Positions 5,188-31,580 are shown, numbered from the stretch's first letter. The stretch is 41,668 nucleotides of DNA from an uncultured Candidatus Saccharibacteria bacterium (GCA_964653875.1 CAZZGH010000002.1:1-41668), one strand, 5' to 3'. The notes: generated by a model not told the origin, from the letters alone. A program made the numbers and translations.

Positions 5188-7356
5188 ATGGCACAATTAA
5201 CCCAAGCGAGTATGGTTAATGTAAGAAGGAGATTTAAAAAAATCTGGACAATCCAAGCTTTCAAGGCATTTGCAATGCTTTTTTTGTGGCTATTCGTAAT
5301 CGGGTCTATCATGCTTCTTTCTTTCTTTTTATACCTCCAGAGAACATTGCCAGACCCTGAATCGATTGCTACCAGAAAAGTCGGCGAATCAACTAAGATA
5401 TACGACCGCACCGGAGAGATCCTTCTATATGACATCCACGGCGAAGAAAAACGAACTATCATCCCTTGGGAACAAATCCCCGACACAATCAAGAAAGCGA
5501 CGTTGGCTTCCGAAGACAGCGATTTTTATAACCACAAGGGGTTGGATATGAGAGGCATTGCGAGGGCGTTTTTCAAAGACATAATTAATTTAGGCGTTTC
5601 ACAGGGCGGATCCACAATTACACAACAACTAGTCAAAAAGGCTCTGTTGGGCGACGAGCGAACAATTTCAAGAAAAATAAAAGAAGCTGTCTTAGCTATT
5701 GAAATAGAGAGGAAATTTACCAAAGATGAAATATTCTGGATGTACTTGAATCAAATTCCTTACGGCTCCAATGCCTACGGGATAGAATCTGCGGCTAAAG
5801 CGTTCTTTGGCAAAAAAGCTTCTCAATTAACTCTGGCTGAAGCAGCTACCATCGCTTCGGTTACAAAAGCTCCCAGTTATTATTCTCCCTTTGGCAACCA
5901 CGTTAACGAACTGTTGTCCAGAAAAAATTCTGTCCTGGCAAGAATGAAAACTCTAAATTTTATATCCGACACCGAATACCAAAAAGCTCTAGCACAAAAA
6001 CTAGAGTTTATTGGAATCGAAAAAGAGCTTGAAAATGATCAACGCCCCATGCATTTCATTATTATGGTTCGAGAATATCTGGCTTCTAAATATGGCGAAG
6101 ACGTCGTTGAAAACGGAGGCTTCAAAGTTATCACCACTTTGGATGCCAACCTTCAGTCATTAGCGCAGGAAACTGTCAAAAAGTACGCAGAGATTAATAA
6201 AGAAAAATACAAAGCTACAAACGCCGCTTTGGTGGCGATAAATCCTAAAAACGGAGACCTTTTGGCTTTGGTCGGTTCCAAAGATTACTTTAATGTTGCC
6301 GATGAAGGAAACTTTAACGTTGCTATCGCCAATAGACAGCCAGGATCAGCTTTTAAGCCTTTCGCATATGCTGTTGCTTTGGAGAAAGGATACCCCGATG
6401 ATACTGTAGTCTTTGATCTAAAAACAGAATTTAATCCGAATTGCAAACCGGACAGTTCCCAAGAAAAAGACAAATACGGAATTGACTGCTATCATCCCCA
6501 AAATTATGACGGAAGATATCGCGGACCGGTTACATTCCGACAAGGTTTAGCGCAATCTTTAAATGTTCCTTCCGTCAAAGTGCTCTACTTGGCGGGAGTT
6601 AACAATACCATAGACCTTACCGAAAAGATGGGGATTACAACACTAGGAGAAAAGTCACGCTTTGGCTTGTCTCTTGTCTTAGGGGGAGCAGAGGTTAAGC
6701 TTGTTGATTTGGTTTCCGCTTATGGAGTTTTTGCAAACGAGGGGATGCGAAGTCCATGGTCTTTTATCCAGAGAGTTGAGTCCTCTAACGGGCAAGTTTT
6801 GGAAGAAAAAAATAATGAGCCCAAACGAGTTCTTGACGCACAAATAGCTCGGCTCATCAATAACATGCTTTCTGACAATTCGGCACGAGCTCCGGTTTTT
6901 GGATACTCAAGTTCTTTATATATCCCCGGGCGAGACGTTGCCGCTAAAACAGGGACAACCCAGGAAAACAGGGACGCATGGGTAGTTGGTTATTCGCCTA
7001 CCGTTGTTACCGGCGTTTGGACAGGGAATAACAAAAATGAATCCATGACCAAAGAAGGAGCTGGTATTAGCGCCTCCGGTCCAATGTGGCATGAATTCAT
7101 GGCCAAAGCTTTAAACACTATGCCTAACGAGAAATTCACTAATCCGGATCCAGTAACAGTCAATAAAGTAATGTTAGATGGTAACTACACTTTCCTGCGA
7201 AATGGCGGTTTATTCCCTGAATACCATGAAATACTTTATTATGTGGATAAGAATAATCCTCTTGGTTCTGCGCCAACAAATCCAGGCACCGACTCACAAT
7301 TTCAAAATTGGGAATGGTCAGTAAATCAAACCTATAATACTACTTCTACACAATAA
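5188..7356 (+). CDS. Class A penicillin-binding protein (glycosyltransferase + transpeptidase)
   Basis: GT51 motifs EDSDFYNHKG and GGSTITQQL. Transpeptidase motifs SAFK, SLN and KTGT. N-terminal TM segment. ATG 5188 is preferred over TTG 5164. TGTTATAAT extended -10 at about 5153-5161. Confidence 0.9.
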   Translation: MAQLTQASMVNVRRRFKKIWTIQAFKAFAMLFLWLFVIGSIMLLSFFLYLQRTLPDPESIATRKVGESTKIYDRTGEILLYDIHGEEKRTIIPWEQIPDTIKKATLASEDSDFYNHKGLDMRGIARAFFKDIINLGVSQGGSTITQQLVKKALLGDERTISRKIKEAVLAIEIERKFTKDEIFWMYLNQIPYGSNAYGIESAAKAFFGKKASQLTLAEAATIASVTKAPSYYSPFGNHVNELLSRKNSVLARMKTLNFISDTEYQKALAQKLEFIGIEKELENDQRPMHFIIMVREYLASKYGEDVVENGGFKVITTLDANLQSLAQETVKKYAEINKEKYKATNAALVAINPKNGDLLALVGSKDYFNVADEGNFNVAIANRQPGSAFKPFAYAVALEKGYPDDTVVFDLKTEFNPNCKPDSSQEKDKYGIDCYHPQNYDGRYRGPVTFRQGLAQSLNVPSVKVLYLAGVNNTIDLTEKMGITTLGEKSRFGLSLVLGGAEVKLVDLVSAYGVFANEGMRSPWSFIQRVESSNGQVLEEKNNEPKRVLDAQIARLINNMLSDNSARAPVFGYSSSLYIPGRDVAAKTGTTQENRDAWVVGYSPTVVTGVWTGNNKNESMTKEGAGISASGPMWHEFMAKALNTMPNEKFTNPDPVTVNKVMLDGNYTFLRNGGLFPEYHEILYYVDKNNPLGSAPTNPGTDSQFQNWEWSVNQTYNTTSTQ

Positions 7357-14504: not shown

Positions 14505-16247
14505 TTACCCCCTAAGTTTCGCCCACTCTTCCTTGGCTTTCTCTATCTCAAGTATCTGGCGGGGGTCGGAGGTGATTATCTGGTCTTCGGCATAAGATGC
14601 GACAACGCGGATGCCGATGTGGTTTTGGCCGAGGAAAAACAATCCGAAACCTACCCGTGCTTCCAGCAGGTAATATTTTTCCGCATCGGTTAAGTTGAAC
14701 GTTGTTTTAACCACCTCGATGGATGATGGCGATTGTTTCATAAGAACCTGTATAGAAGAGTTGCTTAAAATTGTTTTTCCTTGAGGCGATGCCAGAAAAT
14801 CAGGGATATCTTGTGATATGGTGGTCAGACCAGCATAATATTTTCTGGCACGCTTCGCGATATTGGAGAGGAAGTTAGCGCCTAATTCGTATTTCATGAG
14901 CCACCACGCCTCATCAACCACAAGGATTCGCTGTTTGAGCGTTCTTCTGATGGTTACCCACATGAAATTTAAAATTAGGTACATGGCAATTGGCCTTAAC
15001 TCCTCCTCCATTTCTCTAATACTGAAGACTATCATTTGGTTATCTAGCGAAACATTTGTCGGCTTGTTCAAAAAGCCAGCAAAGGTTCCCTGGGTGTATT
15101 TCTTCAACCTGATTGCCATTGACTCTGCTCCAGTTAGGCCTTCTAATATGCTTTGAAGGTCAGAAAGCAAGGGCGGTGAAGATTTGGTAAAGTTGACTTC
15201 TGGAGTGATATCCTTGATGGCATAAGTTTGGATTAAAGCTTCATCTAGGATGGCTGTTTCTTCGGGGGTCAATTCTCCGAGTATGAGTCGTAAAAGGCCA
15301 GTCAGATCAAGAATATGAGATTTGAAAACATCGGCCGGAGATTCGTCTTCTTTTGGTGTTGGCAGATCGAAGGGATTAATATGCTGATCGGAATTGACTG
15401 AGATTTTTATCGACGAGCCACCGATAGTGTCCGAAAGGTACTTGTATTCATTTTCGGGATCAATAATTAAAACCTGGGTTCCAAACAAAAGACTTCGTAA
15501 TATCTCAAGTTTGACAGTATAACTTTTTCCGCCACCTGATTTGCCGAACACAACAGAATTATAATTTTCAAGTTTGAATCTATCGAAAAGTACCAAGGAA
15601 TTATTGTGTGTGTTTATGCCATAAAGCACTCCGGAATTTGAGGTTAGGTCAAAAGAAACAAATGGGAACAAAGAAGAAAGGGGCTCCGTATTTAAGGAAG
15701 TATGGACATTGAGTCGGTCATCGTTAGAAGGCAGAGTTGAATTAAAACCTTCGTTCATCCTGAAAACGGCGGGTTTTGAAAAAACCAGCTGATATTCCAA
15801 GAGGCCCTTTATTTTATTCTCGGTCTCATCCAGCTCTTTAATGTTGTTTTCGTAGATTGTAATGTAGACACCAAGTTCAAAGAATTTGTCTGTTCCCTGT
15901 TGAAGCTTGTCGCGAAGTACTTCTATGTCTTGAATGCCGGTTTCAAGTATTGGATCGCGGACCTTGCCTTTTGAGGATTCTTCCATCGCCTGTGACTGGA
16001 GTCGAGCTAGCTGATCTCTTAATTGTTTAAGAACTGTAGTCGTATTTTTGGGAAGAATAAAAATAGAAATATCAAAAACACGATCTAAGTTTATAACTGG
16101 TGAAAACCAATTAGTGTGAAGATATCGAGGGTAGGTGGCCAAAAATATCGTGCGGGCGTATTTATCCCCTATTTGAAAATAATTAGGTGAAACACTGAAA
16201 GCTGAAGGGGCGAATAGTTCGTCTATTTTTTTATTATTCTGGTCCAT
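14505..16247 (-). CDS. virB4: VirB4/TraC/PrgJ-family T4SS ATPase, C-terminal ATPase part
   Basis: Walker A FGKSGGGKSYTVK and Walker B RILVVDEAWWLM. The region YARTIFLATYPRYLHTNWF is typical of the VirB4 middle region. Confidence 0.8.
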   Translation of the reverse strand: MDQNNKKIDELFAPSAFSVSPNYFQIGDKYARTIFLATYPRYLHTNWFSPVINLDRVFDISIFILPKNTTTVLKQLRDQLARLQSQAMEESSKGKVRDPILETGIQDIEVLRDKLQQGTDKFFELGVYITIYENNIKELDETENKIKGLLEYQLVFSKPAVFRMNEGFNSTLPSNDDRLNVHTSLNTEPLSSLFPFVSFDLTSNSGVLYGINTHNNSLVLFDRFKLENYNSVVFGKSGGGKSYTVKLEILRSLLFGTQVLIIDPENEYKYLSDTIGGSSIKISVNSDQHINPFDLPTPKEDESPADVFKSHILDLTGLLRLILGELTPEETAILDEALIQTYAIKDITPEVNFTKSSPPLLSDLQSILEGLTGAESMAIRLKKYTQGTFAGFLNKPTNVSLDNQMIVFSIREMEEELRPIAMYLILNFMWVTIRRTLKQRILVVDEAWWLMKYELGANFLSNIAKRARKYYAGLTTISQDIPDFLASPQGKTILSNSSIQVLMKQSPSSIEVVKTTFNLTDAEKYYLLEARVGFGLFFLGQNHIGIRVVASYAEDQIITSDPRQILEIEKAKEEWAKLRG

Positions 16248-16872
16248 TTTCGGATGTTAGTTTGTTACCTGGGTTGTATAGCCCGTAGAAAAGATTCATT
16301 AGGTCGTTTCCTTCTAAAGTTTTCGCTTTAAGTCCCATTCCAATCAAGCCGTCAAAGATTAGTTCGGTTCTTTGGAGGAGTTGGCTTTTGTAAGTCTCCA
16401 GCTGTTCGGGCGTTAATTCCTTAACAACCGCCGATGGTTTAAATATGCTTTTTAAACTCTGTGTTATTCCGGATTTTGACGGTGCTTCAAAAACGTAAAA
16501 AGGAACGACAATATAAAATTTCTTAGACATGATGTTGGAAAGGTCTGAAAGCTCTTCGACGAATTTTGAGTATTCTATTGCCTGGATTTTCAAAAGCTCA
16601 TTGGTTAGGGCATTTGCAGATTCATTGATCAATTTGAGATACTCATCGATGTTTAGTTTTCTGGAATTTACAACGATCTGAAGCGGAAAATCTATTGAAT
16701 TAATAAAACGCTGGAAATTTTGGAGAATGGCCGTCTGTTCTCCTTCGGAACGGAGTTCAAAATTAATTGCCGAAACTTCAATCACAGCTCTCAAGGATCC
16801 GTTTTTTAGCAATACAATACTGTCTATTATGTTTGCTATCTCTACTAATTGTTTAGTTGATTTGATAGCCAT
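16234..16872 (-). CDS. VirB4/PrgJ-type N-terminal domain encoded as a separate ORF
   Basis: LLKNGSLRAVIEVSAINFELRSEGEQTAILQNFQRFINSIDFPLQIVVNSRKLNIDEYL matches the N-terminal pattern of Gram-positive VirB4 homologues. It overlaps the ATPase ORF by 14 nt in another frame. Confidence 0.65.
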   Translation of the reverse strand: MAIKSTKQLVEIANIIDSIVLLKNGSLRAVIEVSAINFELRSEGEQTAILQNFQRFINSIDFPLQIVVNSRKLNIDEYLKLINESANALTNELLKIQAIEYSKFVEELSDLSNIMSKKFYIVVPFYVFEAPSKSGITQSLKSIFKPSAVVKELTPEQLETYKSQLLQRTELIFDGLIGMGLKAKTLEGNDLMNLFYGLYNPGNKLTSENGPE

Positions 16873-16904: not shown

Positions 16905-17225
16905 TTAAGAATTTTTACCACCTTCTACCCTCCACTCGCTACTTTCATTATTTTTCTTAAATATATATTTCTTGGGGTTCGTAAAATAAGAAAGCCCGTA
17001 GCTGGCGTAAACTATCAGCGGAACACCGTCTATTTTCAAAAAAGCCAAAGCAAGAAAAATCACAGCCACTGGTATTGCAAAAATGAAGAATAAAATTCCC
17101 CTAACTAAAGTAAAAAGCAGAAACACAAAAGCGGCTCCGCCCGCAATCCATAAAAACTGCTGGAGCGTAAACGGCCCTACTATTTTAGTCTCTGTCTCTA
17201 TGAATTGTGGCAATTGAAAACGCAT
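16905..17225 (-). CDS. PrgI/VirB3-like small T4SS membrane protein
   Basis: MRFQLPQFIETETKIVGPFTLQQFLWIAGGAAFVFLLF followed by a second TM. 106 aa. Immediately upstream of the VirB4 ORFs. Confidence 0.65.
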   Translation of the reverse strand: MRFQLPQFIETETKIVGPFTLQQFLWIAGGAAFVFLLFTLVRGILFFIFAIPVAVIFLALAFLKIDGVPLIVYASYGLSYFTNPKKYIFKKNNESSEWRVEGGKNS

Positions 17226-17338
17226 TTGTAACTTGCTGGCCTCTCCCGCCTAAACTATGGCGAAGTTTATTTTATAAACTAAGTATAGCAGATTTTTAGC
17301 CAAAAATGGCGTAAGTAGTCAACAGCCCGATTTTGTTA

Positions 17339-17344
17339 TATAAT
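17339..17344 (+). promoter_or_regulatory. -10 box TATAAT, 8 nt upstream of the mntA-like ATG
   Basis: Sequence reads ttgtTATAATccaattatATG. Confidence 0.4.
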
Positions 17345-17352
17345 CCAATTAT

Positions 17353-17658
17353 ATGAGAATTGAACACTACCCTCTCGGAAAATTAAAAAAAGACATTCTG
17401 GGTATTATAGGAAAACACTTGGATATTTTAGCGTATAAAGTGTTTTTTTTCGGTTCACGGGTAGTTGGTTCCGGTAACGAGCGGTCGGATATTGACGTCG
17501 GCATTGAAGGTCCGGGAGAGATTTCCTACGAAATTATGGCTAAAATTAAAGACGAAATTGACAACCTGCCCATTCTCTATAAAATTGAGATAGTGGATTT
17601 TGCCAAGGTCTCCCCGGATTTTTACAAAGTTGTTTCATTCCGGCGCGATTATTTATAA
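17353..17658 (+). CDS. mntA: MNT-type nucleotidyltransferase (MntA-like antitoxin)
   Basis: GSRVVGSGNERSDIDVGIEG (GS...SDIDV) minimal NTase motif. 101 aa. Confidence 0.8.
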   Translation: MRIEHYPLGKLKKDILGIIGKHLDILAYKVFFFGSRVVGSGNERSDIDVGIEGPGEISYEIMAKIKDEIDNLPILYKIEIVDFAKVSPDFYKVVSFRRDYL

Positions 17659-17668
17659 TTTTTTTATT

Positions 17669-18058
17669 ATGTCAAAACTTGAAGCTGTTTTAAATCAATT
17701 TGAACAAGCCCTGCAAAGATTGGATGAGGTTTTGAAAGAACCCAAGAACTCTATTATTCGCGATTCGGCTATCCAGCGGTTTGAGTTTAGTTTGGATTTA
17801 TCATGGAAGTCCGTTAAAGCGTATCTTGAGGACAAGAAAGGAATAGCCTGCTCTTCGCCGAAGGATTGTTTCCGTGAAGCATATCGGCAGGGTCTGGTTG
17901 AATACAACGATGCTTGGATTAAGTATGTGGATATGAGAAATGAAACCGCCCACACCTATAAAGAAGAAATTGCCGACAAAATATACGCGGAACTGCCCAA
18001 GGCCTTAGCAGACTTTATGAATTTATTGAAGGCCTTAAGGCAGCCAACAGATGCTTGA
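17669..18058 (+). CDS. hepT: HEPN-domain protein, HI0074 nucleotidyltransferase-substrate-binding family (HepT-like toxin)
   Basis: DSAIQRFEFSLDLSWKSVKAYL and the Rx4H motif RNETAHTY. The internal ATG at 17669 was chosen (129 aa). Confidence 0.8.
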   Translation: MSKLEAVLNQFEQALQRLDEVLKEPKNSIIRDSAIQRFEFSLDLSWKSVKAYLEDKKGIACSSPKDCFREAYRQGLVEYNDAWIKYVDMRNETAHTYKEEIADKIYAELPKALADFMNLLKALRQPTDA

Positions 18059-18077
18059 TATAGCTTTTAATCCATAG

Positions 18078-18083
18078 TATAGT
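18078..18083 (+). promoter_or_regulatory. -10-like TATAGT, 6 nt upstream of the hicB ATG
   Basis: Sequence reads cataGTATAGTgaaaatATG. Confidence 0.3.
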
Positions 18084-18089
18084 GAAAAT

Positions 18090-18335
18090 ATGCTTAGCGA
18101 ATATATAGAAAAACAATTTAAAAAAGCAAAATTTAAGGTCTTGAAGGACGGTTCTTATTTTGGTTCTGTTTCTAGTTTCCCTGGAGTTTGGGCTAATAGA
18201 AAAACCTTAGCAACGTGTAAAAAGGAGTTACGTGAGGTTTTGGAGGAGTCTCTGATTTTAAAAGTTAGGAACAAAGAAAGCATTCCCGGTTTTGACATAA
18301 AATTTGATCGCCGCTCGATGTTTAAACATGCCTAA
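18090..18335 (+). CDS. hicB: HicB-like antitoxin
   Basis: YFGSVSSFPGVWANRKTLATCKKELREVLEESL is a typical HicB N-terminal fold signature. It overlaps hicA by 8 nt (ATGCCTAA). Confidence 0.7.
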   Translation: MLSEYIEKQFKKAKFKVLKDGSYFGSVSSFPGVWANRKTLATCKKELREVLEESLILKVRNKESIPGFDIKFDRRSMFKHA

Positions 18336-18540
18336 GAGTATTTCTTGGCGCAAGTTAGTCCAAAATTTCAAGAAATTAAGTTTTGACGGCCCATACTCTG
18401 GCGGCCGTCATTTATTTATGATTAAAGGAAAACTCAAGGTTCACATACCTAATCCCCACAGCAAAGATATTTCTGGCTTTTTAATAGCCGAAATTTTACG
18501 TCAAGCCGGCCTCTCAACTAAGGAGTGGAATAGTCTGTAA
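18328..18540 (+). CDS. hicA: HicA-like mRNA interferase toxin
   Basis: KLVQNFKKLSFDGPYSGGRHLFMIKG..VHIPNPHSKDISGFLIAEILRQAGLS. 70 aa from the internal ATG. Confidence 0.7.
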   Translation: MPKSISWRKLVQNFKKLSFDGPYSGGRHLFMIKGKLKVHIPNPHSKDISGFLIAEILRQAGLSTKEWNSL

Positions 18541-18585
18541 TATCTTGGTTTCCGTCTCAATAAATTGTGGTAGTTGAAAACGCAT
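18514..18585 (-). pseudogene. Truncated duplicate of the prgI 5' end (first 15 codons, then an unrelated tail)
   Basis: The minus strand encodes MRFQLPQFIETETKI, then LQTIPLLS and a stop. The first 15 aa are identical to PrgI at 17181-17225. Its ATG overlaps the upstream gene's stop codon as TAATG. Confidence 0.75.
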
Positions 18586-20840
18586 TATTGTTTGTTTCTT
18601 AAGTCTACGGTGTTATTGGGATTGGTCGGTGGATTTGGCGGAGTTGGAGATCCGAAACCAACTTGTCCTCTGGGATAGTTTCCGCTGCCTCGGCCGGTTC
18701 TTGGAGGGCCTGCCGGTAGCGTTCCTTCTGCTGGCCCACCGCTGGTCCCACCTAAACCACCTCCACGAATTATTGCTTCGCCAGTTGCTTTCCCTGTTAT
18801 TTCTGCTAATTCTTTTGCAACTCTTTCCTTTTTTGCTTTTATTTTTTCCGCATCAAATTCATCTGGAGATATCTTTTGCCAAGACTCCAGTTGTTGCTTT
18901 GTCCCCTTTGCCATCATGGCTTCAATTTTCTGCTGGTTTAAAGACCCCATTACTAAATTTTTTCTCGCTTCGTATCCAGTATCTTCTGGACCCGTGGAAA
19001 CACCCACGTAATCTTTTAAAGCTCTGGTGGCTTCCAGTAAAGCGTCTGGGTTCATGCGGCTGATTGCTTCTTCCATGGCAACCCGCATCCCTTCAGGAGT
19101 ATTTTCTATTGCTTTTCCAGCTTTCATTAACAGTTGATTTTGTAGTCCAACCTTGGTGGATAATTCAAAATTATGTTTTTCGATCTTTTTGAGAAGATCT
19201 TTCTGTTCACCTTCAAGACCGAATAGGCCCAGGACTTTATTAAGATTTTGTTCGGCACCCTCTTCGGTATTAGTTAAGTAGCGGTCGCCTTTATCGGCCA
19301 TGACATTTGTTATTTTTTGTTTTGTCTCTATGTCGGGCACTCTACCAAGCCAGGTCTCTCTTTCTTGCGCTGACATCTTGTCGTAATCAAGACTTCTGGC
19401 AAATTGCTTAGCTCCAAGAGGTGAAACCTCTTCATAAAGTTCATATGTTTTTCTACGGCCTGCCTCGGATAAAAGCTTTCTATCTTTCAGTATTTCTGCC
19501 GCTGCCAATCTTTCGTCTTTTCTACCCCTAGACATCAAAGCTTCTAGTTGAGTGGGATCTGTAACGGTTTTAAACTTCTCCTTGTTGGCAGCAATATCTT
19601 TGGCTAATTGTTTGTCGGCAGCTCCTCGAACTCCAAATCTTTCTGCCCAGCCGGATGTTTGTCTTTCTAATCCGGCTTTACCACCATAAAGTTTTCCGAA
19701 TCTCCCCGGCAAACCCTCCTGTTTAACCTGTTCTAATCTTTGTTGAGCCGCCCCTCCCATTGCTGTTAACCCCAATCTTCTCGCTGCAACGCCTCGTGAC
19801 CACGTTGCGATCCCCACCACTCCGGTTCCAGAAAACATGGAGGCCTTCATCGCCACTATTGTTCCACCGATTAAAAATATTCCACTTAAAACGTAGAAGA
19901 ATAAAATTTGAAGAGTAAACGAACTTCCGCCGAGGGGCTGATTAGCTGTTTGTGTGGCTATCTTAGAAAGTACTGCGCCCTGGTTTTGTAAAAAATAGAG
20001 CCCAAAATAAAGAAAGAAAAGAAAAATTGGCAGAAACATATTCCAGCCGATAAATGTGCCCCACCATTTTTTGAATGTTCCTTGTCCAGAAGGAAAAATA
20101 TTCAGAATCCAGGCAATTGGAGAAACAATAAGTAAAGCCCATAAAATAGGAATCCTTATTAAGGCAAACAAAAATGCCGTCAACAAACTAAACGCGAACG
20201 TAAAAAGGAGAACGACGGAGAAAATGAGGGTTATTATTGTTCCGAAAACTGCGTTATCTAGGGCATTGGCAAAAGCATTGGCAGAAATTTGGTCGGGATT
20301 AAGGGGAATGTTGTTTACCAGCCCTTGACCCAATCGGCCAGACATGTCTCCAATAGAAGTAAGGAAGGTATTACTTAGGATCTGTGTTCCCTGGATAACC
20401 ATTACTCCGAGAACCAAACTGAAATTTATCAGGAGCGCTGTTAGGAGAAATTTTCCAAACAATGCTCTGGCGTTGTATCTTGCCGCTCCGGGAAGAATAT
20501 CAAAAATAGTTGCAAAAGCCATCACAATGAGGGCAACAATAAAAAACATATTAGCGAAGTCTCTCATAATTTTCCAACTCTCATCTATAACCGCGAGTCC
20601 TCCGTTAGGATAAACTGGTATATTGATTACTTGATAAAGACCAGCGGCGAGTAAAGAAATGACTTGCCCGACAGCTGAAAACATTACAAAAAGAAGCCAA
20701 CCAAATACACTTGAAATTGCATTTGTGGCAATAGATTCTATCCCAAAAGCATTGACCAGATGTGTCGGCAGAAAAACTAAAACAATCGCAAAAAGAATTG
20801 CGAGACAGAGTTTTTTATTTTTTATTTTAAATCCGTCCAT
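18585..20840 (-). CDS. VirB6/TrbL-like polytopic membrane protein with a long helical, Gly/Pro-tailed C-terminal extension
   Basis: About 9 predicted TM segments in the first ~375 aa. These are followed by ~370 hydrophilic residues ending GGGLGGTSGGPAEGTLPAGPPRTGRGSGNYPRGQVGFGSPTPPNPPTNP. Its position next to prgI/virB4 supports the call. Confidence 0.55.
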   Translation of the reverse strand: MDGFKIKNKKLCLAILFAIVLVFLPTHLVNAFGIESIATNAISSVFGWLLFVMFSAVGQVISLLAAGLYQVINIPVYPNGGLAVIDESWKIMRDFANMFFIVALIVMAFATIFDILPGAARYNARALFGKFLLTALLINFSLVLGVMVIQGTQILSNTFLTSIGDMSGRLGQGLVNNIPLNPDQISANAFANALDNAVFGTIITLIFSVVLLFTFAFSLLTAFLFALIRIPILWALLIVSPIAWILNIFPSGQGTFKKWWGTFIGWNMFLPIFLFFLYFGLYFLQNQGAVLSKIATQTANQPLGGSSFTLQILFFYVLSGIFLIGGTIVAMKASMFSGTGVVGIATWSRGVAARRLGLTAMGGAAQQRLEQVKQEGLPGRFGKLYGGKAGLERQTSGWAERFGVRGAADKQLAKDIAANKEKFKTVTDPTQLEALMSRGRKDERLAAAEILKDRKLLSEAGRRKTYELYEEVSPLGAKQFARSLDYDKMSAQERETWLGRVPDIETKQKITNVMADKGDRYLTNTEEGAEQNLNKVLGLFGLEGEQKDLLKKIEKHNFELSTKVGLQNQLLMKAGKAIENTPEGMRVAMEEAISRMNPDALLEATRALKDYVGVSTGPEDTGYEARKNLVMGSLNQQKIEAMMAKGTKQQLESWQKISPDEFDAEKIKAKKERVAKELAEITGKATGEAIIRGGGLGGTSGGPAEGTLPAGPPRTGRGSGNYPRGQVGFGSPTPPNPPTNPNNTVDLRNKQ

Positions 20841-27657: not shown

Positions 27658-27705
27658 CCACAAGAGCTAAAAATCTCAAGCAGTTGAGGTTTTAAGCTCT
27701 TGTGG
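27658..27705 (-). terminator. Long hairpin immediately after tRNA-Ala copy 1
   Basis: ccacaagagct ... agctcttgtgg, with inner stem ctcaa-gcag-ttgag. It overlaps the last 3 nt of the tRNA. Confidence 0.5.
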
Positions 27706-27773
27706 ACCCGGGGAGAATCGAACTCCCGCCTCGACAATGCGAATGTTGCGTTATGCCACTTAACTACGGGCTC
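27703..27773 (-). tRNA. tRNA-Ala(CGC), copy 1, no encoded CCA, with two A-C mismatches
   Basis: Hand-folded cloverleaf. Acceptor gagcccg/cgggtcc with G3:U70. D stem gtta/taac. Anticodon loop ttCGCat. T arm gggag-ttcgatt-ctccc. A2:C71 mismatch plus one A-C in the anticodon stem. Confidence 0.75.
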
Positions 27774-28154
27774 TTATCTAACTTTTTTTATTTCACCAAA
27801 CGGGTGCGGTAATTCTCTGGCTTCAATGAGATCTTCCACGTGTTTTTGCCAAAGTTTTAATTTAGCTTCCATGTTTTCTCTGGCAACATTGTTTTGTGAA
27901 TGAATTCTAATCTCTGCTCGGAACAACTCAGGATGTTTTTCTGACATCCATTTCATGATTTCCAAACCCTCAGTTAGTTCTCCACTATTTTCACCCAAGT
28001 CATTATCAAGACTTAGGGCATCAATTCTTTCTCCAGATTTGCTGGCCTCGTCTATAAGAGACTTAAATTCTTCAAAATTAATCGCTACTCGCCAACCATC
28101 GGGTATCCAATTTTTCCGCTCGTTATGAGCTTGATCGTCTAAAAATATTTTCAT
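27774..28154 (-). CDS. Cyclic-phosphate-processing receiver (cREC)-like domain protein
   Basis: MKIFLDD...DGW...IDALSLDNDLGE...EGLEIMKWM...IRIHSQNNVARENM matches my recollection of the family pattern (LDD, GW, SLDHDLG, HS.NP..R..M). The internal ATG was chosen because the ORF-track N-terminus runs through a tRNA gene. Confidence 0.65.
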   Translation of the reverse strand: MKIFLDDQAHNERKNWIPDGWRVAINFEEFKSLIDEASKSGERIDALSLDNDLGENSGELTEGLEIMKWMSEKHPELFRAEIRIHSQNNVARENMEAKLKLWQKHVEDLIEARELPHPFGEIKKVR

Positions 28155-28190
28155 AGGTTTTTTATCAGTTAATCCTCGGTAAATCAAATT

Positions 28191-28264
28191 TGGTGGACCC
28201 GGCGGTAATCGAAACCGCGTCCCGGCAATGCGAATGCCGTATATTACCACTATACGACGGGCCC
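28191..28264 (-). tRNA. tRNA-Ala(CGC), copy 2, CCA encoded
   Basis: Acceptor gggcccg/cgggtcc with G3:U70. Perfect anticodon stem cggca/tgccg. Anticodon loop ttCGCat. T arm gcggt-ttcgatt-accgc. 3' ACCA. Confidence 0.85.
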
Positions 28265-28267
28265 AAT

Positions 28268-29152
28268 TTAAATTAATCTACTCAAAATTTTATCTAATTG
28301 ATTATTTGGATACAAGTCTTTAGGATAAATTCCAATAAGTTTTATCTTATTTTTGCGGCAGAGTTTAATTTTTTCTTTTACAGCCCTATCGTATCTTGGG
28401 CTATCTTTTGCAAGACCAAAGTATTCGACAAATATTTTACCATTTTTTATGGACCAATCGGCCTTGTGGTCGGTAGTCGGGTATTTTGTGTCACGGTTAT
28501 GGGGGATACCGCGCTTGGTTAGCCAGTTGTCGACTATGGCTTCAGAGATTGAATCACAGACATGGCCATCATTAGCTTTGGTTTTCATACGGCGATACAT
28601 GCGGTGGTCATGAGAACGATGTGGCGTAAAATTAGCGGCGATTATCGCGTTGTTCCATGAGCCAAATTGGTGGATAGCTTTATGTGATATTTCCATTATT
28701 TCTCTTTTGGCAGGAACTCGTTTGTTCTTGCCATAGTGATTCTTAATAATAGAAATTATCTGTTCTTTAGAATACTTAGGAACATGAGAATAATGAAAGC
28801 TTGACCACCCGCACTTACTTGAACAATATTTAGATTCCCTGTTCTTAAACTCCTTACCACAAACCTTGCAATATCTTTTGGGCCATTTTGGATATCTTTG
28901 ATTATTTACAATCGCAGCACAGGATTTAGAGCAGTAGTTAGACGCAGAAATGTTGCCTGGTGCTCTGTAGAATTTTTTGCCGCACTCATGGTTCTCGCAA
29001 AGTATAATACTGCCTCGTATTTTGGATTTGTAATGACATTTTTTAGAGCAAAATGAATGATAGCCAGCATTTTTGTTAAAAATAAAATAAGCTCTCTTCG
29101 TCAGGAATTGTTTGCGGCAAAAATAACATCGGATTTTTACCCTTGATAACAC
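28268..29152 (-). CDS. Triple zinc-ribbon protein with a homing-endonuclease-associated repeat and a C-terminal PD-(D/E)XK (Vsr/DUF559-like) nuclease-like domain
   Basis: Three CxxC...FCSxxC units. FGSWNNAIIAANF repeat motif. The C-terminus DSISEAIVDNWL...ADWSIKNGKIFVEYFG...KIKL...KLIGIY resembles a restriction-endonuclease fold. GTG start. Confidence 0.5.
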   Translation of the reverse strand: MLSRVKIRCYFCRKQFLTKRAYFIFNKNAGYHSFCSKKCHYKSKIRGSIILCENHECGKKFYRAPGNISASNYCSKSCAAIVNNQRYPKWPKRYCKVCGKEFKNRESKYCSSKCGWSSFHYSHVPKYSKEQIISIIKNHYGKNKRVPAKREIMEISHKAIHQFGSWNNAIIAANFTPHRSHDHRMYRRMKTKANDGHVCDSISEAIVDNWLTKRGIPHNRDTKYPTTDHKADWSIKNGKIFVEYFGLAKDSPRYDRAVKEKIKLCRKNKIKLIGIYPKDLYPNNQLDKILSRLI

Positions 29153-29158
29153 CCTTTA

Positions 29159-29164
29159 ATTATA
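29159..29164 (-). promoter_or_regulatory. -10 box TATAAT, 6 nt upstream of the GTG start of the zinc-ribbon ORF
   Basis: Minus strand reads gaTATAATtaaaggGTG. Confidence 0.35.
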
Positions 29165-29221
29165 TCAAAGTTTAAGTCGAGCTACAAGGATTTGAATCTC
29201 GGATTCTTTCGCACCATTTTG

Positions 29222-29293
29222 TCAGGCTGGAGGGAGTCGGACCCTCTTTCTCTATCGCCCGAGGATAGCGTGTTACCGTTACACTACAGCCTG
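29222..29293 (-). tRNA. tRNA-Pro(CGG), no encoded CCA, unusual T-loop
   Basis: Acceptor caggctg/cagcctg (C1:G72, typical of bacterial tRNA-Pro). D arm gtgt-aacggta-acac. Anticodon loop ctCGGgc with G37. T arm gaggg-tccgact-ccctc. Confidence 0.8.
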
Positions 29294-29297
29294 GAAT

Positions 29298-30731
29298 TTA
29301 TACATAATATTTCTTCATCCTCTCCTTCTCTTCTTCCTCAATGGCTTTTTCTATTGTCTCCAACGATTTTCTTAATTCTTCCGGTGTTTTTTTATCCAAT
29401 TCATGAATTCTTTTTTCCAGATATTCTTTGGTGTTTTTATTTGGGTCGTCAATTACTTCAGCCAAAAGATAATTCAAGATTAATCCGATTTTTGGCCCTG
29501 GTTTTATATCAAGTTCCTTCATAATATCTTCTCCTCCAATTTTGAGCATTTTTACGGAGATAGGATCGCTGGAGACCTTGTCTATAATATACTGAAGATG
29601 GCGTAATTTATAGGGAACAGCCTTTGGTCTGCCCGAACCTATTCTGTCCGCTTCGCGGACCTTTATCAAGTCTTCAATATTTTCTAAGCTAATCTTTGTC
29701 AACAACCTTCTTACCGAGGACTCCGTTACCTCTTCGGGATTATAGTAGAACATATGGTAGCGGACCAGTTTTATTATTTTTTCAGCCTGATCTTTTGGGA
29801 ATTTTAGCCGAGACATTATTTCTGCAACCATTTTTGCCCCGATAACCTCATGGCCGTAGAATGTTGAATTCCGGCCCGCTCCCCTTTTAGATTTTGGTTT
29901 ACCTATGTCATGAAACAATGATGCCAAACGCACATCCAAAGAATAGTTTTTTTCTGCCGAATATTTTAGTGCCTTGACGAGATGTTCCCAAACGGTATAA
30001 ATATGGTGCAAGTTTTGTTCAACTCCAACTCCTTCTAATAATTCAGGAATAATATGTTTAAGCAACCCTGTTTCTTGGAGACGGATAACCCCGTCGTAGG
30101 CATTGTCGGAATTAATAATTTTTACAAATTCGTCCCGGATTCTCTCTTTGGAAATAGCTACCAGCCAGGCAGAGTTTTTGTTTATTGCTTCAAGTGTTTC
30201 CTTTTCTATTTTAAAACCAAGGAGCGTTGCAAATCTTATGGCTCTTAATAGTCGGAGGGCATCCTCATTAAATCTTTCTTCGGGCTTACCTACTGTCCTT
30301 ATTGTTTTGGATTTTAAGTCTTTCTGGCCGTTGAATAAGTCTATAATTTCTCCATTTATGTCCATTGCCAACGCATTTACCGTAAAATCACGCCGTGACA
30401 AGTCATCTTCAAGTTTGTCGGCGAATTTAACAGAATCTGGATGGCGTTTGTCCGTATATTTACCCTCAATACGGTATGGTGTGACCTCGACAAGAGCAAG
30501 TTCAGGTTTTTCTGAATTCGTTTTAACTGCTACTGTGCCGAATGTATTTTCATAGACATGTTCGGGGAATAATTTTTGTATTTTTTCGGGCTTGGCGTTT
30601 GTAGTGACATCCCAATCTTTCGGTTCTTTGCCCAATAACAAATCACGGACACAGCCTCCTACTGTATATCCTTCAAGTCCTGCGCTATTTAATTTTTTTA
30701 TAATCTCCCGTATTTCTTTTGGAAGTTGCAT
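29298..30731 (-). CDS. cca: CCA-adding tRNA nucleotidyltransferase with HD domain
   Basis: GGCVRDLLLG and DWDV polymerase-beta motifs. HD motif LFHDIGKP. 477 aa. Confidence 0.85.
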   Translation of the reverse strand: MQLPKEIREIIKKLNSAGLEGYTVGGCVRDLLLGKEPKDWDVTTNAKPEKIQKLFPEHVYENTFGTVAVKTNSEKPELALVEVTPYRIEGKYTDKRHPDSVKFADKLEDDLSRRDFTVNALAMDINGEIIDLFNGQKDLKSKTIRTVGKPEERFNEDALRLLRAIRFATLLGFKIEKETLEAINKNSAWLVAISKERIRDEFVKIINSDNAYDGVIRLQETGLLKHIIPELLEGVGVEQNLHHIYTVWEHLVKALKYSAEKNYSLDVRLASLFHDIGKPKSKRGAGRNSTFYGHEVIGAKMVAEIMSRLKFPKDQAEKIIKLVRYHMFYYNPEEVTESSVRRLLTKISLENIEDLIKVREADRIGSGRPKAVPYKLRHLQYIIDKVSSDPISVKMLKIGGEDIMKELDIKPGPKIGLILNYLLAEVIDDPNKNTKEYLEKRIHELDKKTPEELRKSLETIEKAIEEEEKERMKKYYV

Positions 30732-30743
30732 GTTTTCTTATGA

Positions 30744-30817
30744 TGCCCCGGGCAGGATTTGAACCTGCAGTCTTCCCCTTAGGACGGGGCTGCTTAATCC
30801 AATTAAGCTACCGGGGC
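30744..30817 (-). tRNA. tRNA-Arg(CCT), no encoded CCA
   Basis: Acceptor gccccgg/ccggggc. D arm gctt-aattggatt-aagc. Anticodon loop gtCCTaa. T arm gcagg-ttcaaat-cctgc. Confidence 0.85.
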
Positions 30818-31435
30818 GTTAATTTCTTTTGAAATACCGACAATCAAAGACCTAACTACTTTAAACAAATAGCCACTTTTCCTAACCGCAACTCTGCACA
30901 TTCCAAATTCAGTCCTACCCCTCTTGCCACCATCGTTATAATACATGTTAATTTGTTTTTTAGGAACTTTTGTTATTTTTGACCAGTGTCTTAAACACTT
31001 GTCTCGATTCATCCCGGTAAAATACCTGACAGTTATTAGTAGTTGGCCCTTGTCTACACGAAAACATTTTTTTAGTATGCCGATAAATATACTTATCATT
31101 TCTGCATTAGTATTGACGAAAGAAAAAGCATTTTTATTATCTCCTTCAGCCCAGTAAAGCATCGCTAAAAGACTTACTAAATATTTGTTGTTGCTGTTGA
31201 GAAGTATTCTTGCTTCATCTTTTGCTTTAATTAAATCTCGTTCTTTTTTTAACCTACTCCCGCCTTGATTGGCCTTTAATTTTAAGATATACTTTTTCCG
31301 TAACTTAATAGTGTGTATGTGATGCCATACTGTACTTTTTGGCATTGAGAGTATCTTAACCAGCTCCTCAATACTGTGACCTTCTTTTCGTAGCTGCTTT
31401 AGCTGCTCTACTTTTTCTAAAGAATGGACATGCAT
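30803..31435 (-). CDS. HTH plus LAGLIDADG-type homing-endonuclease-like protein
   Basis: N-terminal HTH-like HSIEELVKILSMPKSTVWHHI. LAGLIDADG-like motif LLAMLYWAEGD. The last 15 nt overlap the 5' end of tRNA-Arg. Confidence 0.6.
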   Translation of the reverse strand: MHVHSLEKVEQLKQLRKEGHSIEELVKILSMPKSTVWHHIHTIKLRKKYILKLKANQGGSRLKKERDLIKAKDEARILLNSNNKYLVSLLAMLYWAEGDNKNAFSFVNTNAEMISIFIGILKKCFRVDKGQLLITVRYFTGMNRDKCLRHWSKITKVPKKQINMYYNDGGKRGRTEFGMCRVAVRKSGYLFKVVRSLIVGISKEINAPVA

Positions 31436-31504
31436 AATACATTCAGTATATAATTTTAATTAGAACAAGTAAATAGCTCCTTGTTTATAGATTGAGGTTC
31501 AAAT

Positions 31505-31580
31505 GGGCCGTTAGCTCAGCTGGTAGAGCGTTTCTATGGCATAGAAAAGGTCACCGGTTCAAATCCGGTACGGTCCACCA
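31505..31580 (+). tRNA. tRNA-Ala(GGC), CCA encoded
   Basis: Acceptor gggccgt/acggtcc with G3:U70. Anticodon loop atGGCat. T arm accgg-ttcaaat-ccggt. Confidence 0.9.

Follow-up and report, generated by a model that had tools for sequence, protein, structure and literature searches.

Two toxin–antitoxin pairs at the prgI junction of a Patescibacteria type IV secretion operon probably belong to a recurrent, recombination-driven cassette array

How did two toxin–antitoxin (TA) pairs come to lie antisense within a type IV secretion system (T4SS) operon, between two copies of the start of prgI that differ in sequence and encode the same peptide? The locus lies in a 41,668-nt stretch of DNA, referred to here as the window. 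A sequence-only reading had described it as one block bracketed by one duplication. Comparison with related loci leads us to regard the region as probably one case of a recurrent modular cassette array, driven by recombination and situated where the VirB6-side gene meets prgI. The host clade of this array is that of the Yanofskybacteria-type Patescibacteria (CPR), where it occupies a chromosomal T4SS operon. No earlier description of the array was found in literature searches.

The gene identities proposed from the sequence (mntA-hepT, hicB-hicA, prgI and VirB4) agreed with Pfam (Table 1). The prgI product matched PF12666 (E = 1.4e-9) and its gene lies two genes upstream of that for VirB4, consistent with membership in the PrgI/VirB3 proteins of monoderm-type T4SS; the same prgI-virB4 arrangement is found in published Patescibacteria T4SS (PMC12102498). 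The upstream 751-aa ORF gave no Pfam match in the window, and its 750-aa homologue in the related locus L131 matched PF19590 (TrbL_3). The 3′ end of this upstream gene is colinear with a gene of ~175 aa that abuts prgI in relatives with an empty site. The T4SS operon is chromosomal and adjoins dnaA, as has also been published for Patescibacteria (PMC12102498); it is located next to oriC, is not a mobile element and is probably essential. With the insert in place, the TraC-like and VirB4 genes (14505..16872) are cut off from the upstream part of the operon.

Within the insert, hicB precedes hicA with an overlap of 8 nt. The 81-aa HicB matched UPF0150 as its sole Pfam family, and Pfam detected no DNA-binding domain in it. 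With HicA (PF07927) encoded next to HicB, the pair is predicted to form a HicAB type II TA system. The hallmark of MntA-HepT systems is a minimal nucleotidyltransferase with a GSx(n)DxD motif beside a HEPN protein with an Rx4-6H motif. The translations contain GSRVVGSGNERSDIDV and RNETAH, and the pair is classed as a putative MntA-HepT (MNT-HEPN) type II/VII TA system. Each cassette has a promoter-like site of its own in a promoter scan, at 17316-17344 for cassette A and at 18055-18083 (TTGATA-17-TATAGT) for cassette B. Neither integrase, resolvase nor transposase was found by Pfam among 30 window ORFs (the 4 cassette genes and 26 others).

Table 1. Features of the insert and its surroundings (window coordinates).
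Feature	Position	Strand	Basis or remark
VirB4-like ATPase	14505-16247	-	Pfam
TraC-like protein, 212 aa	16234-16872	-	Pfam; precomputed PF26593 matches on homologues
Full-length prgI, VirB3 homologue, 106 aa	16905..17225	-	Pfam PF12666; proximal copy 17181-17225
Leader, 56 nt, module to prgI ATG	17226..17281	-	Comparison with L084, L003
43-nt promoter-like module, TGTTGACTAC-N25-TGCTATACT	17282..17324	-	Invariant 9-mer at fixed distance from extended -10 motif
Cassette A, mntA-hepT	17353..18058	+	Pfam
mntA	17353-17658	+	MNT-type nucleotidyltransferase; Pfam Polbeta/NTP_transf_2
hepT	17669-18058	+	Pfam NTase_sub_bind / HEPN (HepT-like)
Module core remnant of cassette B, CTGTTGGCTGCC	18039..18050	-	Fused to hepT 3′ end
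Cassette B, hicB-hicA	18090..18540	+	Pfam UPF0150 and HicA_toxin
hicB	18090-18335	+	Pfam UPF0150 (HicB-like)
hicA	18328-18540	+	Pfam HicA (HicA_toxin)
Distal prgI 5′ relic (prgI′)	18514..18585	-	nt 18541-18585 = prgI codons 1-15; ORF then antisense into hicA 3′ end
Upstream T4SS gene, 751 aa, VirB6/TrbL-like	18585..20840	-	Stop 18585-18587

That the first 45 nt of prgI recur beside the upstream gene with the same peptide was confirmed both by alignment and by a repeat search of the 6-kb region, in which this pair was the top direct repeat; its local alignment scored z = 15 against shuffles. Read on the minus strand (17225->17181 and 18585->18541), both copies run from ATG to ATA and translate as MRFQLPQFIETETKI. 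They are 18% diverged, with 8 differences in seven codons (TTG/CTA, TTC/TTT, ATA/ATT, ACA/ACG, GAG/GAA, ACT/ACC and AAA/AAG), and a codon-by-codon check bore out the claim that all eight are synonymous. Of the 126 single substitutions that codons 2-15 allow, only 25 are synonymous, so that eight out of eight would arise by chance with a probability of ~2e-6. Past nt 45 the copies are alike at 11/19 nt, into the hicA 3′ end, a weak similarity that was judged not significant. The distal copy starts a 23-codon ORF (MRFQLPQFIETETKILQTIPLLS, then a stop), its ATG overlaps the stop of the upstream ORF (TAATG, 18583-18587), and the complement of the hicA stop codon (18538-18540) follows it directly. 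Both junctions recur in independent assemblies and are not artefacts of assembly. The distal one is covered by L156, a Logan contig of a different run that is 99.6% identical to window 17230-19200, and three other contigs are identical (100%) across the proximal one. A search for close strain variants of the window found solely identical arrangements.

The synonymous-only differences are explained by the first 15 PrgI residues, which are near-invariant across the clade; among alleles that encode an identical peptide, 2-12 of the 45 nt differ. This makes the two copies different functional alleles of prgI rather than a decaying duplicate, in line with the earlier argument against a decayed target-site duplication. 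The proximal copy is nearest to L089 (4 differences to the proximal and 3 to the distal copy of that locus), and the distal copy to the proximal copy of L096 (2 differences), L082 (3) and L083 (3). As to which window copy is native, these small counts over 45 nt are suggestive at most.

Most relatives have an empty site (for example L085, L086, L087, L004 and L034, with many others), and close relatives show the same stop/start overlap there, ...CAATAATG. In L085 and L087 the site reads ...AAACA(A/G)TAATG-prgI, and the 3′ end of the window's upstream gene together with the distal copy is colinear with both at 84-86%. Two proposals were thus upheld, namely that the distal TAATG is the ancestral junction and that related genomes would contain the uninterrupted virB6-side TAATG-prgI; no full-length second prgI that could have supplied the fragment was seen in the window. 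Gain and loss are read here from species-level relatives at about 75-82% nt identity; among the loci compared, neither an empty-site variant more than 90% identical to this genome nor a circular or excised cassette was seen.

At least nine other distinct arrangements carry cargo at this junction flanked by prgI 5′ fragments of 48-75 nt, with relics of this length in L013, L084, L089, L096, L098, L131, L136, L138, L144 and L145. The typical unit in relatives consists of antisense cargo, a 43-nt module and a prgI 5′ segment, in that order. Cassettes A and B occur in the same order as in the window in L136, L138 and L156, and in reverse order in L131-L135 and L137. A hicBA cassette without mntA-hepT, bearing its own prgI′, is present in L098 and shares 84% nt identity with cassette B, and mntA-hepT has other partners elsewhere (a 48-aa ORF in L089, a relBE-like pair in L149, a Fic gene in L144). 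At least three prgI 5′ copies lie in L131. What had been taken for one block bracketed by one duplication is instead two independent cassettes of a recurrent array (L131-L138, L098, L089). PADLOC and Pfam gave no match for the 164-210-aa antisense genes of L002, L011, L012, L014, L017, L026 and L040. A '215-aa antisense ORF' in L082 was spurious, being antisense of the upstream gene.

The module between cassette A and prgI occurs once in the window, and its consensus in relatives is TGTTGACTAC-N25-TGnTATAMT. In 1.46 Mb of related loci, every strict-pattern match (11/11) sits 6-162 nt upstream of a prgI-like ATG, and complete modules in further loci have such an ATG just downstream wherever the contig is long enough; internal core-only remnants (e.g. 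L149) do not. We presume that the module is a promoter for prgI and the downstream genes, and expression of prgI-virB4 from inside the insert, as the sequence-only reading had proposed, is probable given that the module is exclusive to prgI starts in occupied sites. A role as a general promoter was rejected on its single occurrence in the window and its exclusive position upstream of prgI starts elsewhere. The distance from the 9-mer to the -10 hexamer is 29 nt, unlike normal -35 spacing. RNAalifold predicted zero pairs across 15 variants of the module, and Rfam returned nothing relevant in a gathering search of the whole window or in an E-value search of 17100-18700 and L084. Two readings by eye were also set aside: a sigma-54 promoter (TGGC...CTGC), because the GG/GC positions vary among variants, and an attC-like or dif-like site, for which the motif order or palindromy was unfit. 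L084 and L003 have a longer noncoding segment, and the last ~34-38 nt of the leader are what is left of its 3′ part.

The relatives also indicate how the window's own junctions differ. In L136 and L138 an intact module and a 75-nt prgI′ lie between the two cassettes, and in a three-way alignment ~170 nt of these loci (the rest of the module, the leader, the 75-nt prgI′ and the hepT stop) are absent from the window. The hepT product of the window ends in ...ALRQPTDA, as against ...ALK in L089, L131 and L149, with five codons read into the core remnant; this remnant was matched at reverse-complement position 23620. A core-only junction like that of the window, with a different left-hand cassette, is found in L149. 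At the other end, the hicBA cassette abuts nt 63 of prgI′ in L131 and nt 75 in L098. The earlier statement that homology ends exactly at the hicA stop codon thus describes a junction that was trimmed secondarily.

Differences between copies within one array follow two patterns. They are confined to nt 1-24, with nt 25-45 identical, in L013, L084, L089, L131, L136 and L138, and identity extends to nt 62 in L131, L136 and L013; they occur throughout in the window, L096, L098, L144 and L145. Such a distribution would be expected from recombination or gene conversion between the repeats, with occasional import of a foreign allele. In the L131, L136 and L138 arrays, which come from one population, nt 1-24 of each copy seem to be linked to the module that belongs to the cassette upstream of it. 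This linkage is inconsistent in other genomes.

As comparison shows, a unit comprises a cargo antisense to the operon, usually a type II TA pair, then a promoter-like module of 43 nt aimed into prgI, and then the first 45-75 nt of prgI in a further copy. In the model that we favour, the window holds two such cassettes, hicBA beside the upstream gene and mntA-hepT beside prgI, from which the middle module and prgI′ have been lost, leaving the module core alone fused to hepT. The distal 45-nt copy is the relic of an earlier prgI 5′ end, trimmed to the hicA stop codon and still joined to the upstream gene via the ancestral TAATG, and the proximal copy is the allele linked to the mntA-hepT cassette. 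Each allele evolved inside a working gene, hence the synonymous-only differences. Most likely, recombination within the prgI′ direct repeats adds, removes and rearranges cassettes; it could be homologous recombination of the unequal or Campbell type, probably acting on DNA arriving from relatives, and the junctions would later be shortened by microhomology-mediated deletions. Selection may preserve the upstream gene, the promoter for prgI-virB4 and the toxin reading frame, and the TA pairs are probably kept by addiction.

Homologous recombination leaves three features unexplained. The 9-mer TGTTGACTA is the exact right boundary for five unrelated cargo types (mntA-hepT, hicBA, the relBE-like pair, an IS200-like element and the gene of L012/L017), the prgI′ junction falls at nt 75 for three cargo types, and divergence within arrays ends abruptly near nt 24. 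That breakpoints recur in this way hints at a step directed by sequence. It is conceivable, if on balance unlikely, that a dedicated site-specific cassette system with integron-like logic operates here through an enzyme in trans (e.g. Y1/HUH, IS200/IS605-type). Insertion would then occur at the left edge of the core TGTTGACTA and at ~nt 24/25 or nt 75 of prgI, with the module and prgI 5′ segment as attachment platform. Such a step is kept in play because mobile elements share the breakpoints. A genuine IS200-like element (Y1_Tnp, 17-nt hairpins at both ends) lies at the same right-hand boundary in L082 and L089/L141. Two different arrays (carriers L098 and L144-L147) contain a 53-nt hairpin element, with compensatory changes in its stem, that occurs exclusively within prgI′; its position, nt 24/25, is the point at which within-array divergence also ends in L131/L136/L138. 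Core-only junctions with different left neighbours, in the window and L149, fit as well. The ends of the IS200-like element show no obvious target duplication.

Several observations weigh against such a system. No recombinase or transposase was found in the cassettes or the 30 scanned window ORFs, the TA cassettes are without IS hairpins, and the module has no conserved fold. The prgI′ lengths vary (45, 48, 63, 66 and 75 nt), and identical tracts of at least 21 nt (38-51 nt in L131, L136 and L013) are a hallmark of homologous recombination or gene conversion. A 6-nt microhomology (TACTTT) could explain the core-hepT junction as a deletion, and the exact boundary could reflect a selection filter if the module once abutted the upstream stop codon. 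A cassette-capture platform of a kind not described before, set in an essential T4SS operon of this clade and taking up small TA, IS, Fic and other cassettes by a trans enzyme, possibly Y1/HUH, is likewise conceivable but unlikely. Insertion would then be site-specific, at TGTTGACTA and a fixed prgI point, as in an integron but without the integron integrase, and each cassette would bring a portable promoter and the first prgI codons, so that the operon survives.

It is distinctly improbable that both TA modules arrived as one block by a single recombination with a diverged prgI allele. In such a homology-facilitated illegitimate recombination, homology would have joined just one of the two ends, and the first 45 nt of the recipient's own prgI would have stayed behind as a scar. 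This import would account for the synonymous-only divergence and the ancestral junction at the distal copy, and the proximal copy with module and mntA-hepT is indeed colinear with L089 (82% nt identity over 1090 nt of cassette A, module and prgI); one such event may have joined mntA-hepT-prgI to a resident hicBA at the module core. However, the TA pairs are separable, occurring alone, with other partners and in reverse order. Together with the lone hicBA and its own prgI′ in L098 and the three or more prgI 5′ copies in L131, this means that import of a single block is not the whole history. A true target-site duplication with both copies kept by purifying selection on a 23-aa mini-protein or by translational coupling can be dismissed as highly improbable, for although the relics of the window (15 codons), L096 and L084 (22 codons each) carry 0 replacements and the relic start is still coupled to the upstream stop, replacements in the relics of L013 (Q23R), L098 (T20M and L21F), L144 (P18L) and L145 suggest a relic peptide without selection, the 53-nt hairpin insert interrupts those of L098 and L144-L147 and shifts the frame in L098, relic length ranges over 45-75 nt, far outside known transposase target-site duplications, and full-length prgI alleles of different genomes show the same synonymous-only pattern.

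The proposed array bears on how TA loci spread. They are known to move between genomes, and apart from integrons, plasmids and phages little is understood of how they do so; in these loci two TA pairs are traceable as discrete units that change places at a single site defined to the nucleotide. With its promoter-like element and surrogate gene start, each unit appears to offset the damage to the operon, a T4SS operon that reportedly cannot be dispensed with for epibiotic growth in a different lineage of Patescibacteria. The locus offers a concrete case of accessory-gene turnover in very small CPR genomes and a natural marker of recombination between strains, and the 43-nt module is a candidate promoter in organisms where few are defined. 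If mere homologous recombination and selection are at work, it is a tidy, unsurprising genomic hotspot.

Among known systems, the target-site duplications of transposons measure about 2-15 bp, are identical at insertion and accompany defined element ends and a transposase; the repeats here are 45 nt (to 75 nt in relatives) and 18% diverged, with no transposase in the block. IS200/IS605 (Y1 HUH) elements are marked by subterminal hairpins at either end, by insertion 3′ of a short target that is not duplicated, and by a Y1 transposase acting in cis or trans. A genuine member does occupy the same slot at the same nucleotide boundary, with hairpins and Y1 transposase (L082, L141), and a solo hairpin element lies in prgI′. 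For the TA cassettes of the window, which are flanked by long gene-derived repeats, no matching hairpins or transposase were found; the shared target boundary is their sole link to that family.

A closer parallel is provided by e14 and phage 21 in E. coli icd, where the element carries a gene end and displaces a fragment, icdC (PMC13626634), and excision recombines the two copies (Hill et al. 1989 as cited in PMC13626634). Both cases combine a working gene that has an element-borne end with a displaced fragment, the copies differing mainly at synonymous sites: here a full-length prgI follows the insert, the 45-nt relic follows the upstream gene, and relatives have empty sites with an uninterrupted junction. 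In contrast to e14, the 5′ end is duplicated and a promoter-like element comes along; the units are 0.45-0.9 kb, encode no integrase and are stacked several at a time, and the target is the T4SS operon of a CPR bacterium. No site-specific integrase was found by Pfam in the cassette genes or the 26 other window ORFs, though a partner might be encoded farther off in the genome.

At fda in streptococci, integrative elements and cis-mobilizable elements without an integrase (CIMEs) accumulate in tandem at one att site, as with ICESt1/ICESt3. There as here, att-like direct repeats derived from a gene end separate the units, some of which lack a recombination gene, and arrays vary among strains. In the present case neither an ICE nor a partner integrase was identified, each unit carries one TA pair as cargo, and the repeats consist of coding sequence, 45-75 nt long, in which long tracts are identical, fitting homologous recombination.

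Vibrio superintegrons are chromosomal integron cassette arrays with prominent TA cassettes, and the present arrays resemble them in their ordered, small, single-function cassettes, fixed platform by a promoter, prominence of TA pairs and variable order. Integrons are marked by IntI beside attI and Pc, by attC sites of the form RYYYAAC...GTTRRRY and by usually promoterless cassettes in one orientation. Here, in contrast, no IntI was found (30 window ORFs, Pfam), there are no attC hairpins with RYYYAAC/GTTRRRY cores, and each cassette has a promoter-like site of its own and runs antisense to the platform. The hairpin element of L098, which is absent from the window, has the attC motif order reversed.

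In conjugative elements and phages, hotspots such as those of SXT/R391 and P2/P4 place variable cargo between core genes that are conserved. The resemblance lies in a fixed intergenic spot, in a transfer-gene cluster, that receives unrelated accessory genes, often for TA or defence. The differences are that the cluster is chromosomal here and that tightly coupled genes are split, for which a portable promoter-like element and a surrogate gene start appear to compensate.

The start of prgI, a VirB3 homologue, is present twice in the window as 45-nt copies read on the minus strand, one opening the full gene (17225-17181, proximal) and one a displaced fragment, prgI' (18585-18541, distal). Each encodes MRFQLPQFIETETKI. 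Eight nucleotide differences, spread over 7 codons, separate the copies, and all eight are synonymous, as the sequence-only reading had reported. Silent changes make up 25 of the 126 possible single substitutions in the compared codons, giving a chance of about 2e-6 for eight silent changes. The pair was the top direct repeat of the surrounding 6 kb in a repeat search and scored 15 SD over shuffled controls in local alignment. The distal copy overlaps the stop codon of the upstream 751-aa VirB6/TrbL-like gene as TAATG and directly adjoins the complement of the hicA stop codon. Because independent contigs from four other sequencing runs between them reproduce both junctions (99.6-100% identity), the structure is real and not an assembly product.

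For comparison, 80 genome loci and 49 metagenome loci (numbered with the prefix L) were fetched through VirB4 and PrgI. In most of them the upstream gene abuts or overlaps prgI; L085, L086 and L087, which are closely related to the window, are among these empty sites. An empty site with TAATG-prgI, as sought in relatives, was found in L085 and L087, where the junction reads ...AAACA(A/G)TAATG and so has the overlap seen at the distal junction of the window. Both loci are colinear (84-86%) with the distal copy and the adjoining end of the upstream gene. The distal junction is therefore the ancestral one. An antisense gene without any prgI fragment lies at the same site in L002, L011, L012, L014, L017, L026, L029 and L040. 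Three metagenome or MAG contigs (L003, L083 and L091) start 65-69 nt upstream of prgI, within module or leader sequence, as would be expected if the array were polymorphic or repeated in those populations, breaking assembly.

A motif and local-alignment screen upstream of full-length prgI detected prgI 5' fragments in L013, L084, L089, L096 and L098, and L131-L138 and L144-L147 were added through the contexts of MntA homologues. The unit is a cassette of cargo, a promoter-like module pointing into prgI, and a prgI 5' segment; mntA-hepT and hicBA, the two toxin-antitoxin (TA) pairs of the window, are cassettes in their own right. In L131-L135 and L137 the order is upstream gene, prgI' (75 nt), hepT-mntA, module, prgI' (63 nt), hicA-hicB, module and full prgI, the reverse of the window's cassette order. 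The window's order is found in L136 and L138, where hicB and hepT are separated by an intact module, a leader and a prgI' of 75 nt. Alignment with these two loci showed about 170 nt to be absent from the window, where the module core CTGTTGGC (~18042-18049), fused to hepT, is the sole remainder of the middle unit. HepT ends in ...ALK* in L089, L131 and L149 and in ...ALRQPTDA* in the window, whose hepT stop is lost; five extra codons (RQPTDA*), supplied by the complementary strand of the core remnant (18039-18058), lengthen the HEPN toxin. The stop is TAA in L089, L131 and L136 and TAG in L144 and L149; judging from the predicted deletion product, that of the window probably changed from TAG to CAG. 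A 6-nt microhomology, TACTTT, seen in L136 at both ends of the missing segment, could yield this deletion. A core-only junction of this type also occurs in L149, where the left-hand cassette is relBE-like. The window thus carries a recurrent two-cassette array with its middle unit lost. The sequence-only reading, which described one toxin-antitoxin block bracketed by the duplication, was therefore incomplete, while its ancestral junction, diverged allele and internal promoter stand.

Features of the window and of related prgI loci
Feature	Locus	Position	Strand	Remark
VirB4-like ATPase	window	14505-16247	-	Pfam
prgI	window	16905-17225	-	Pfam
Module	window	17282-17324	-	single occurrence in window
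mntA	window	17353-17658	+	Pfam
hepT	window	17669-18058	+	Pfam
hicB	window	18090-18335	+	Pfam
hicA	window	18328-18540	+	Pfam
Upstream gene	window	18585-20840	-	single ORF
prgI', 45 nt	window			hicBA
prgI', 63 nt	L131; L144			hicBA; hepT
prgI', 66 nt	L084, L089, L096			48-aa-ORF group
prgI', 75 nt	L098; L131 and L136; L013			hicBA; hepT; 
Cargo	L098		antisense	hicBA, 84% nt identity to window's hicBA
Cargo	L089		antisense	48-aa ORF and mntA-hepT, 82% nt identity to window's mntA-hepT
Cargo	L096		antisense	48-aa ORF and relBE-like pair
Cargo	L013		antisense	a different hicBA
Cargo	L084		sense	another hicBA
Cargo	L144			antisense Fic gene, among others
IS200/IS605-like element	L082; L141; L089; L139, L142	2570-3320; 1400-2760; 1-760; 		antisense cargo of L082, L089, L141
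53-nt hairpin element	L098; L144; L145-L147	1563-1615; about 1008-1060 (reverse complement); 		
ATTCG(C/T)A-repeat leaders	L098; L136; L017; L014, L015	2226-2279; 526-578 (reverse complement); 6790-6866; upstream of prgI		

The first 15 PrgI residues are almost invariant across the clade, and full-length alleles that encode exactly this peptide show 2-12 differences from the window copies over 45 nt, in agreement with the diverged allele proposed earlier. The proximal copy is nearest to L089 (4 differences to its proximal and 3 to its distal copy), with which the window has the mntA-hepT cassette in common; for the distal copy the best match is L096's proximal copy (2 differences), followed by L082 and L083 (3 each). 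Since prgI' relics elsewhere carry replacements (L013, L098, L144, L145), hairpin inserts (L098, L144-L147) and a frame shift (L098), the relic peptide is under no selection of its own. Taken together with the near-invariant peptide, this decay favours a reading of the window copies as two alleles, each the product of evolution within a functional gene.

The module, TGTTGACTAC-N25-TGnTATAMT, lies upstream of a prgI or prgI' copy at every occupied site of the window's subclade, as do 11/11 strict-pattern matches in 1.46 Mb of related sequence. In later-fetched loci, each complete module is closely followed by a prgI-like ATG wherever the contig extends far enough, which is not the case for internal core-only remnants like that of L149. 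The invariant 9-mer core is 29 nt upstream of the -10 hexamer. The extended -10 motif is 6-10 nt from the ATG in most loci, suggesting a leaderless prgI mRNA there, and 56 nt from it in the window. No conserved fold was found by structure prediction and no match in Rfam. The module would act as the promoter restoring prgI-virB4 expression after the operon was split, and it supplies, as a prediction, the internal prgI promoter anticipated from the sequence. A predicted mntA promoter (17316-17344) on the other strand shares sequence with this core through its -35-like hexamer, TAGTCA, so that the two predicted promoters, for cargo and prgI, stand back to back. The L017 core falls within a perfect palindrome of 16 nt, AGTCAACATGTTGACT.

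Two leader types were observed. A conserved noncoding segment of ~90 nt with the hairpin CCATAGTRAACTATGG lies between module and prgI (L084:975-1134, L003:1-64), occurs twice elsewhere in L036 (14109-14201, 16407-16499) and is reduced to a 3' remnant in the window (17226-17263); it has no Rfam match and might represent a new kind of leader or small RNA. In the other type, the stretch from the module (or upstream gene) to prgI contains ATTCG(C/T)A three or four times at intervals, and these repeats could form a regulator-binding array.

Divergence between copies followed two patterns. In the first (L013, L084, L089, L131, L136, L138), differences within an array are confined to nt 1-24, nt 25-45 are identical, and identity runs on to nt 62 in L131, L136 and L013. 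This pattern reflects concerted evolution or recent duplication and is consistent with homologous recombination, unequal or of Campbell type, between repeats of 45-75 nt; a crossover between the full prgI of a cassette-A allele and the prgI' of a cassette-B allele would give exactly the A-B or B-A arrays seen. In the second pattern (window, L096, L098, L144, L145) the copies differ throughout, and a diverged allele would have to be imported, in line with the recombination event originally proposed. Each variable-length relic ends at or near a cargo stop codon, and such lengths would be expected if deletions had trimmed the relics up to the limit set by the toxin reading frame.

Homologous recombination between prgI' repeats does not explain the fixed breakpoints. 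Five unrelated cargo types have the same exact end nucleotide, left of TGTTGACTA, and at this point, exactly between the upstream-gene stop and the module core, L082 and L141 carry an IS200/IS605-type element with a Y1_Tnp gene (PF01797) and 17-nt hairpins (CATAGGGCGGACCTATG / CATAGGTCCGCCCTATG) at both ends. L082 is without a prgI' fragment. The 53-nt hairpin element was confined to prgI', where two unrelated arrays carry it at nt 24/25, and was found nowhere else among 155 loci examined or in the window; its loop CACGCTGTGAGCCCTCGCGAC is conserved, its stems show compensatory changes, and DNA folding gave -19.4 and -15.8 kcal/mol. Its site is where within-array divergence stops in L131. The shared cargo boundary, the IS element at the same point and the hairpin site raise the possibility, which we regard as improbable, of a sequence-directed step, perhaps catalysed in trans by an HUH enzyme. 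Alternatively, insertions inside the upstream gene or the module may not be tolerated, so that viable insertions have a common boundary. Two further observations concern the cargo: the IS-like element of L141 has a third hairpin, which brackets a passenger gene of 174 aa, and in L144 (46-969, locus plus strand) a 307-aa Fic-domain gene, a further cargo type, follows a prgI' relic of its own that is split by the hairpin.

The array lies in the origin region of a Patescibacteria chromosome (dnaA, dnaN, rnpA, yidC, jag, then the T4SS cluster), with its nearest VirB4 relatives in Candidatus Yanofskybacteria / Paceibacterota MAGs. A 2025 survey described chromosomal, origin-proximal T4SS of this kind, equated PrgI with VirB3 and noted that PrgI is essential for epibiotic growth in Southlakia; it makes no mention of cassettes at the prgI junction (PMC12102498). 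A Pfam scan found no integrase, resolvase or transposase in the cassettes or the 26 other window ORFs. Many relatives (compared: L034, L085, L087) have a ~700-aa VirB6-like gene and a separate ~170-aa gene in place of the single 751-aa ORF, whose C-terminus (...NTVDLRNKQ*) matches that of the ~170-aa gene, suggesting a fusion or internal deletion. At 27703-31577, five tRNA genes are interspersed among protein genes, including those for an HNH homing-endonuclease-associated-repeat protein (28268-29152) and a CCA-adding enzyme.

No description of this prgI array was found in the literature searched; it would be of greater interest if the fixed breakpoints prove enzymatic. The nearest textbook case is e14 / phage 21 at icd in E. 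coli, where the gene receives a substitute end from the element and the differences in the displaced icdC fragment are mainly synonymous (PMC13626634). The array logic is shared with CIMEs, in which integrase-less units accrete in tandem at one att site, and with TA-rich integron arrays, and variable cargo between core genes is likewise found at ICE and phage hotspots. What sets the prgI array apart is that duplication affects the 5' end of the gene, together with a promoter-like element, that the unit is a single TA pair without a recombinase, and that the site belongs to a chromosomal T4SS operon in a CPR bacterium.
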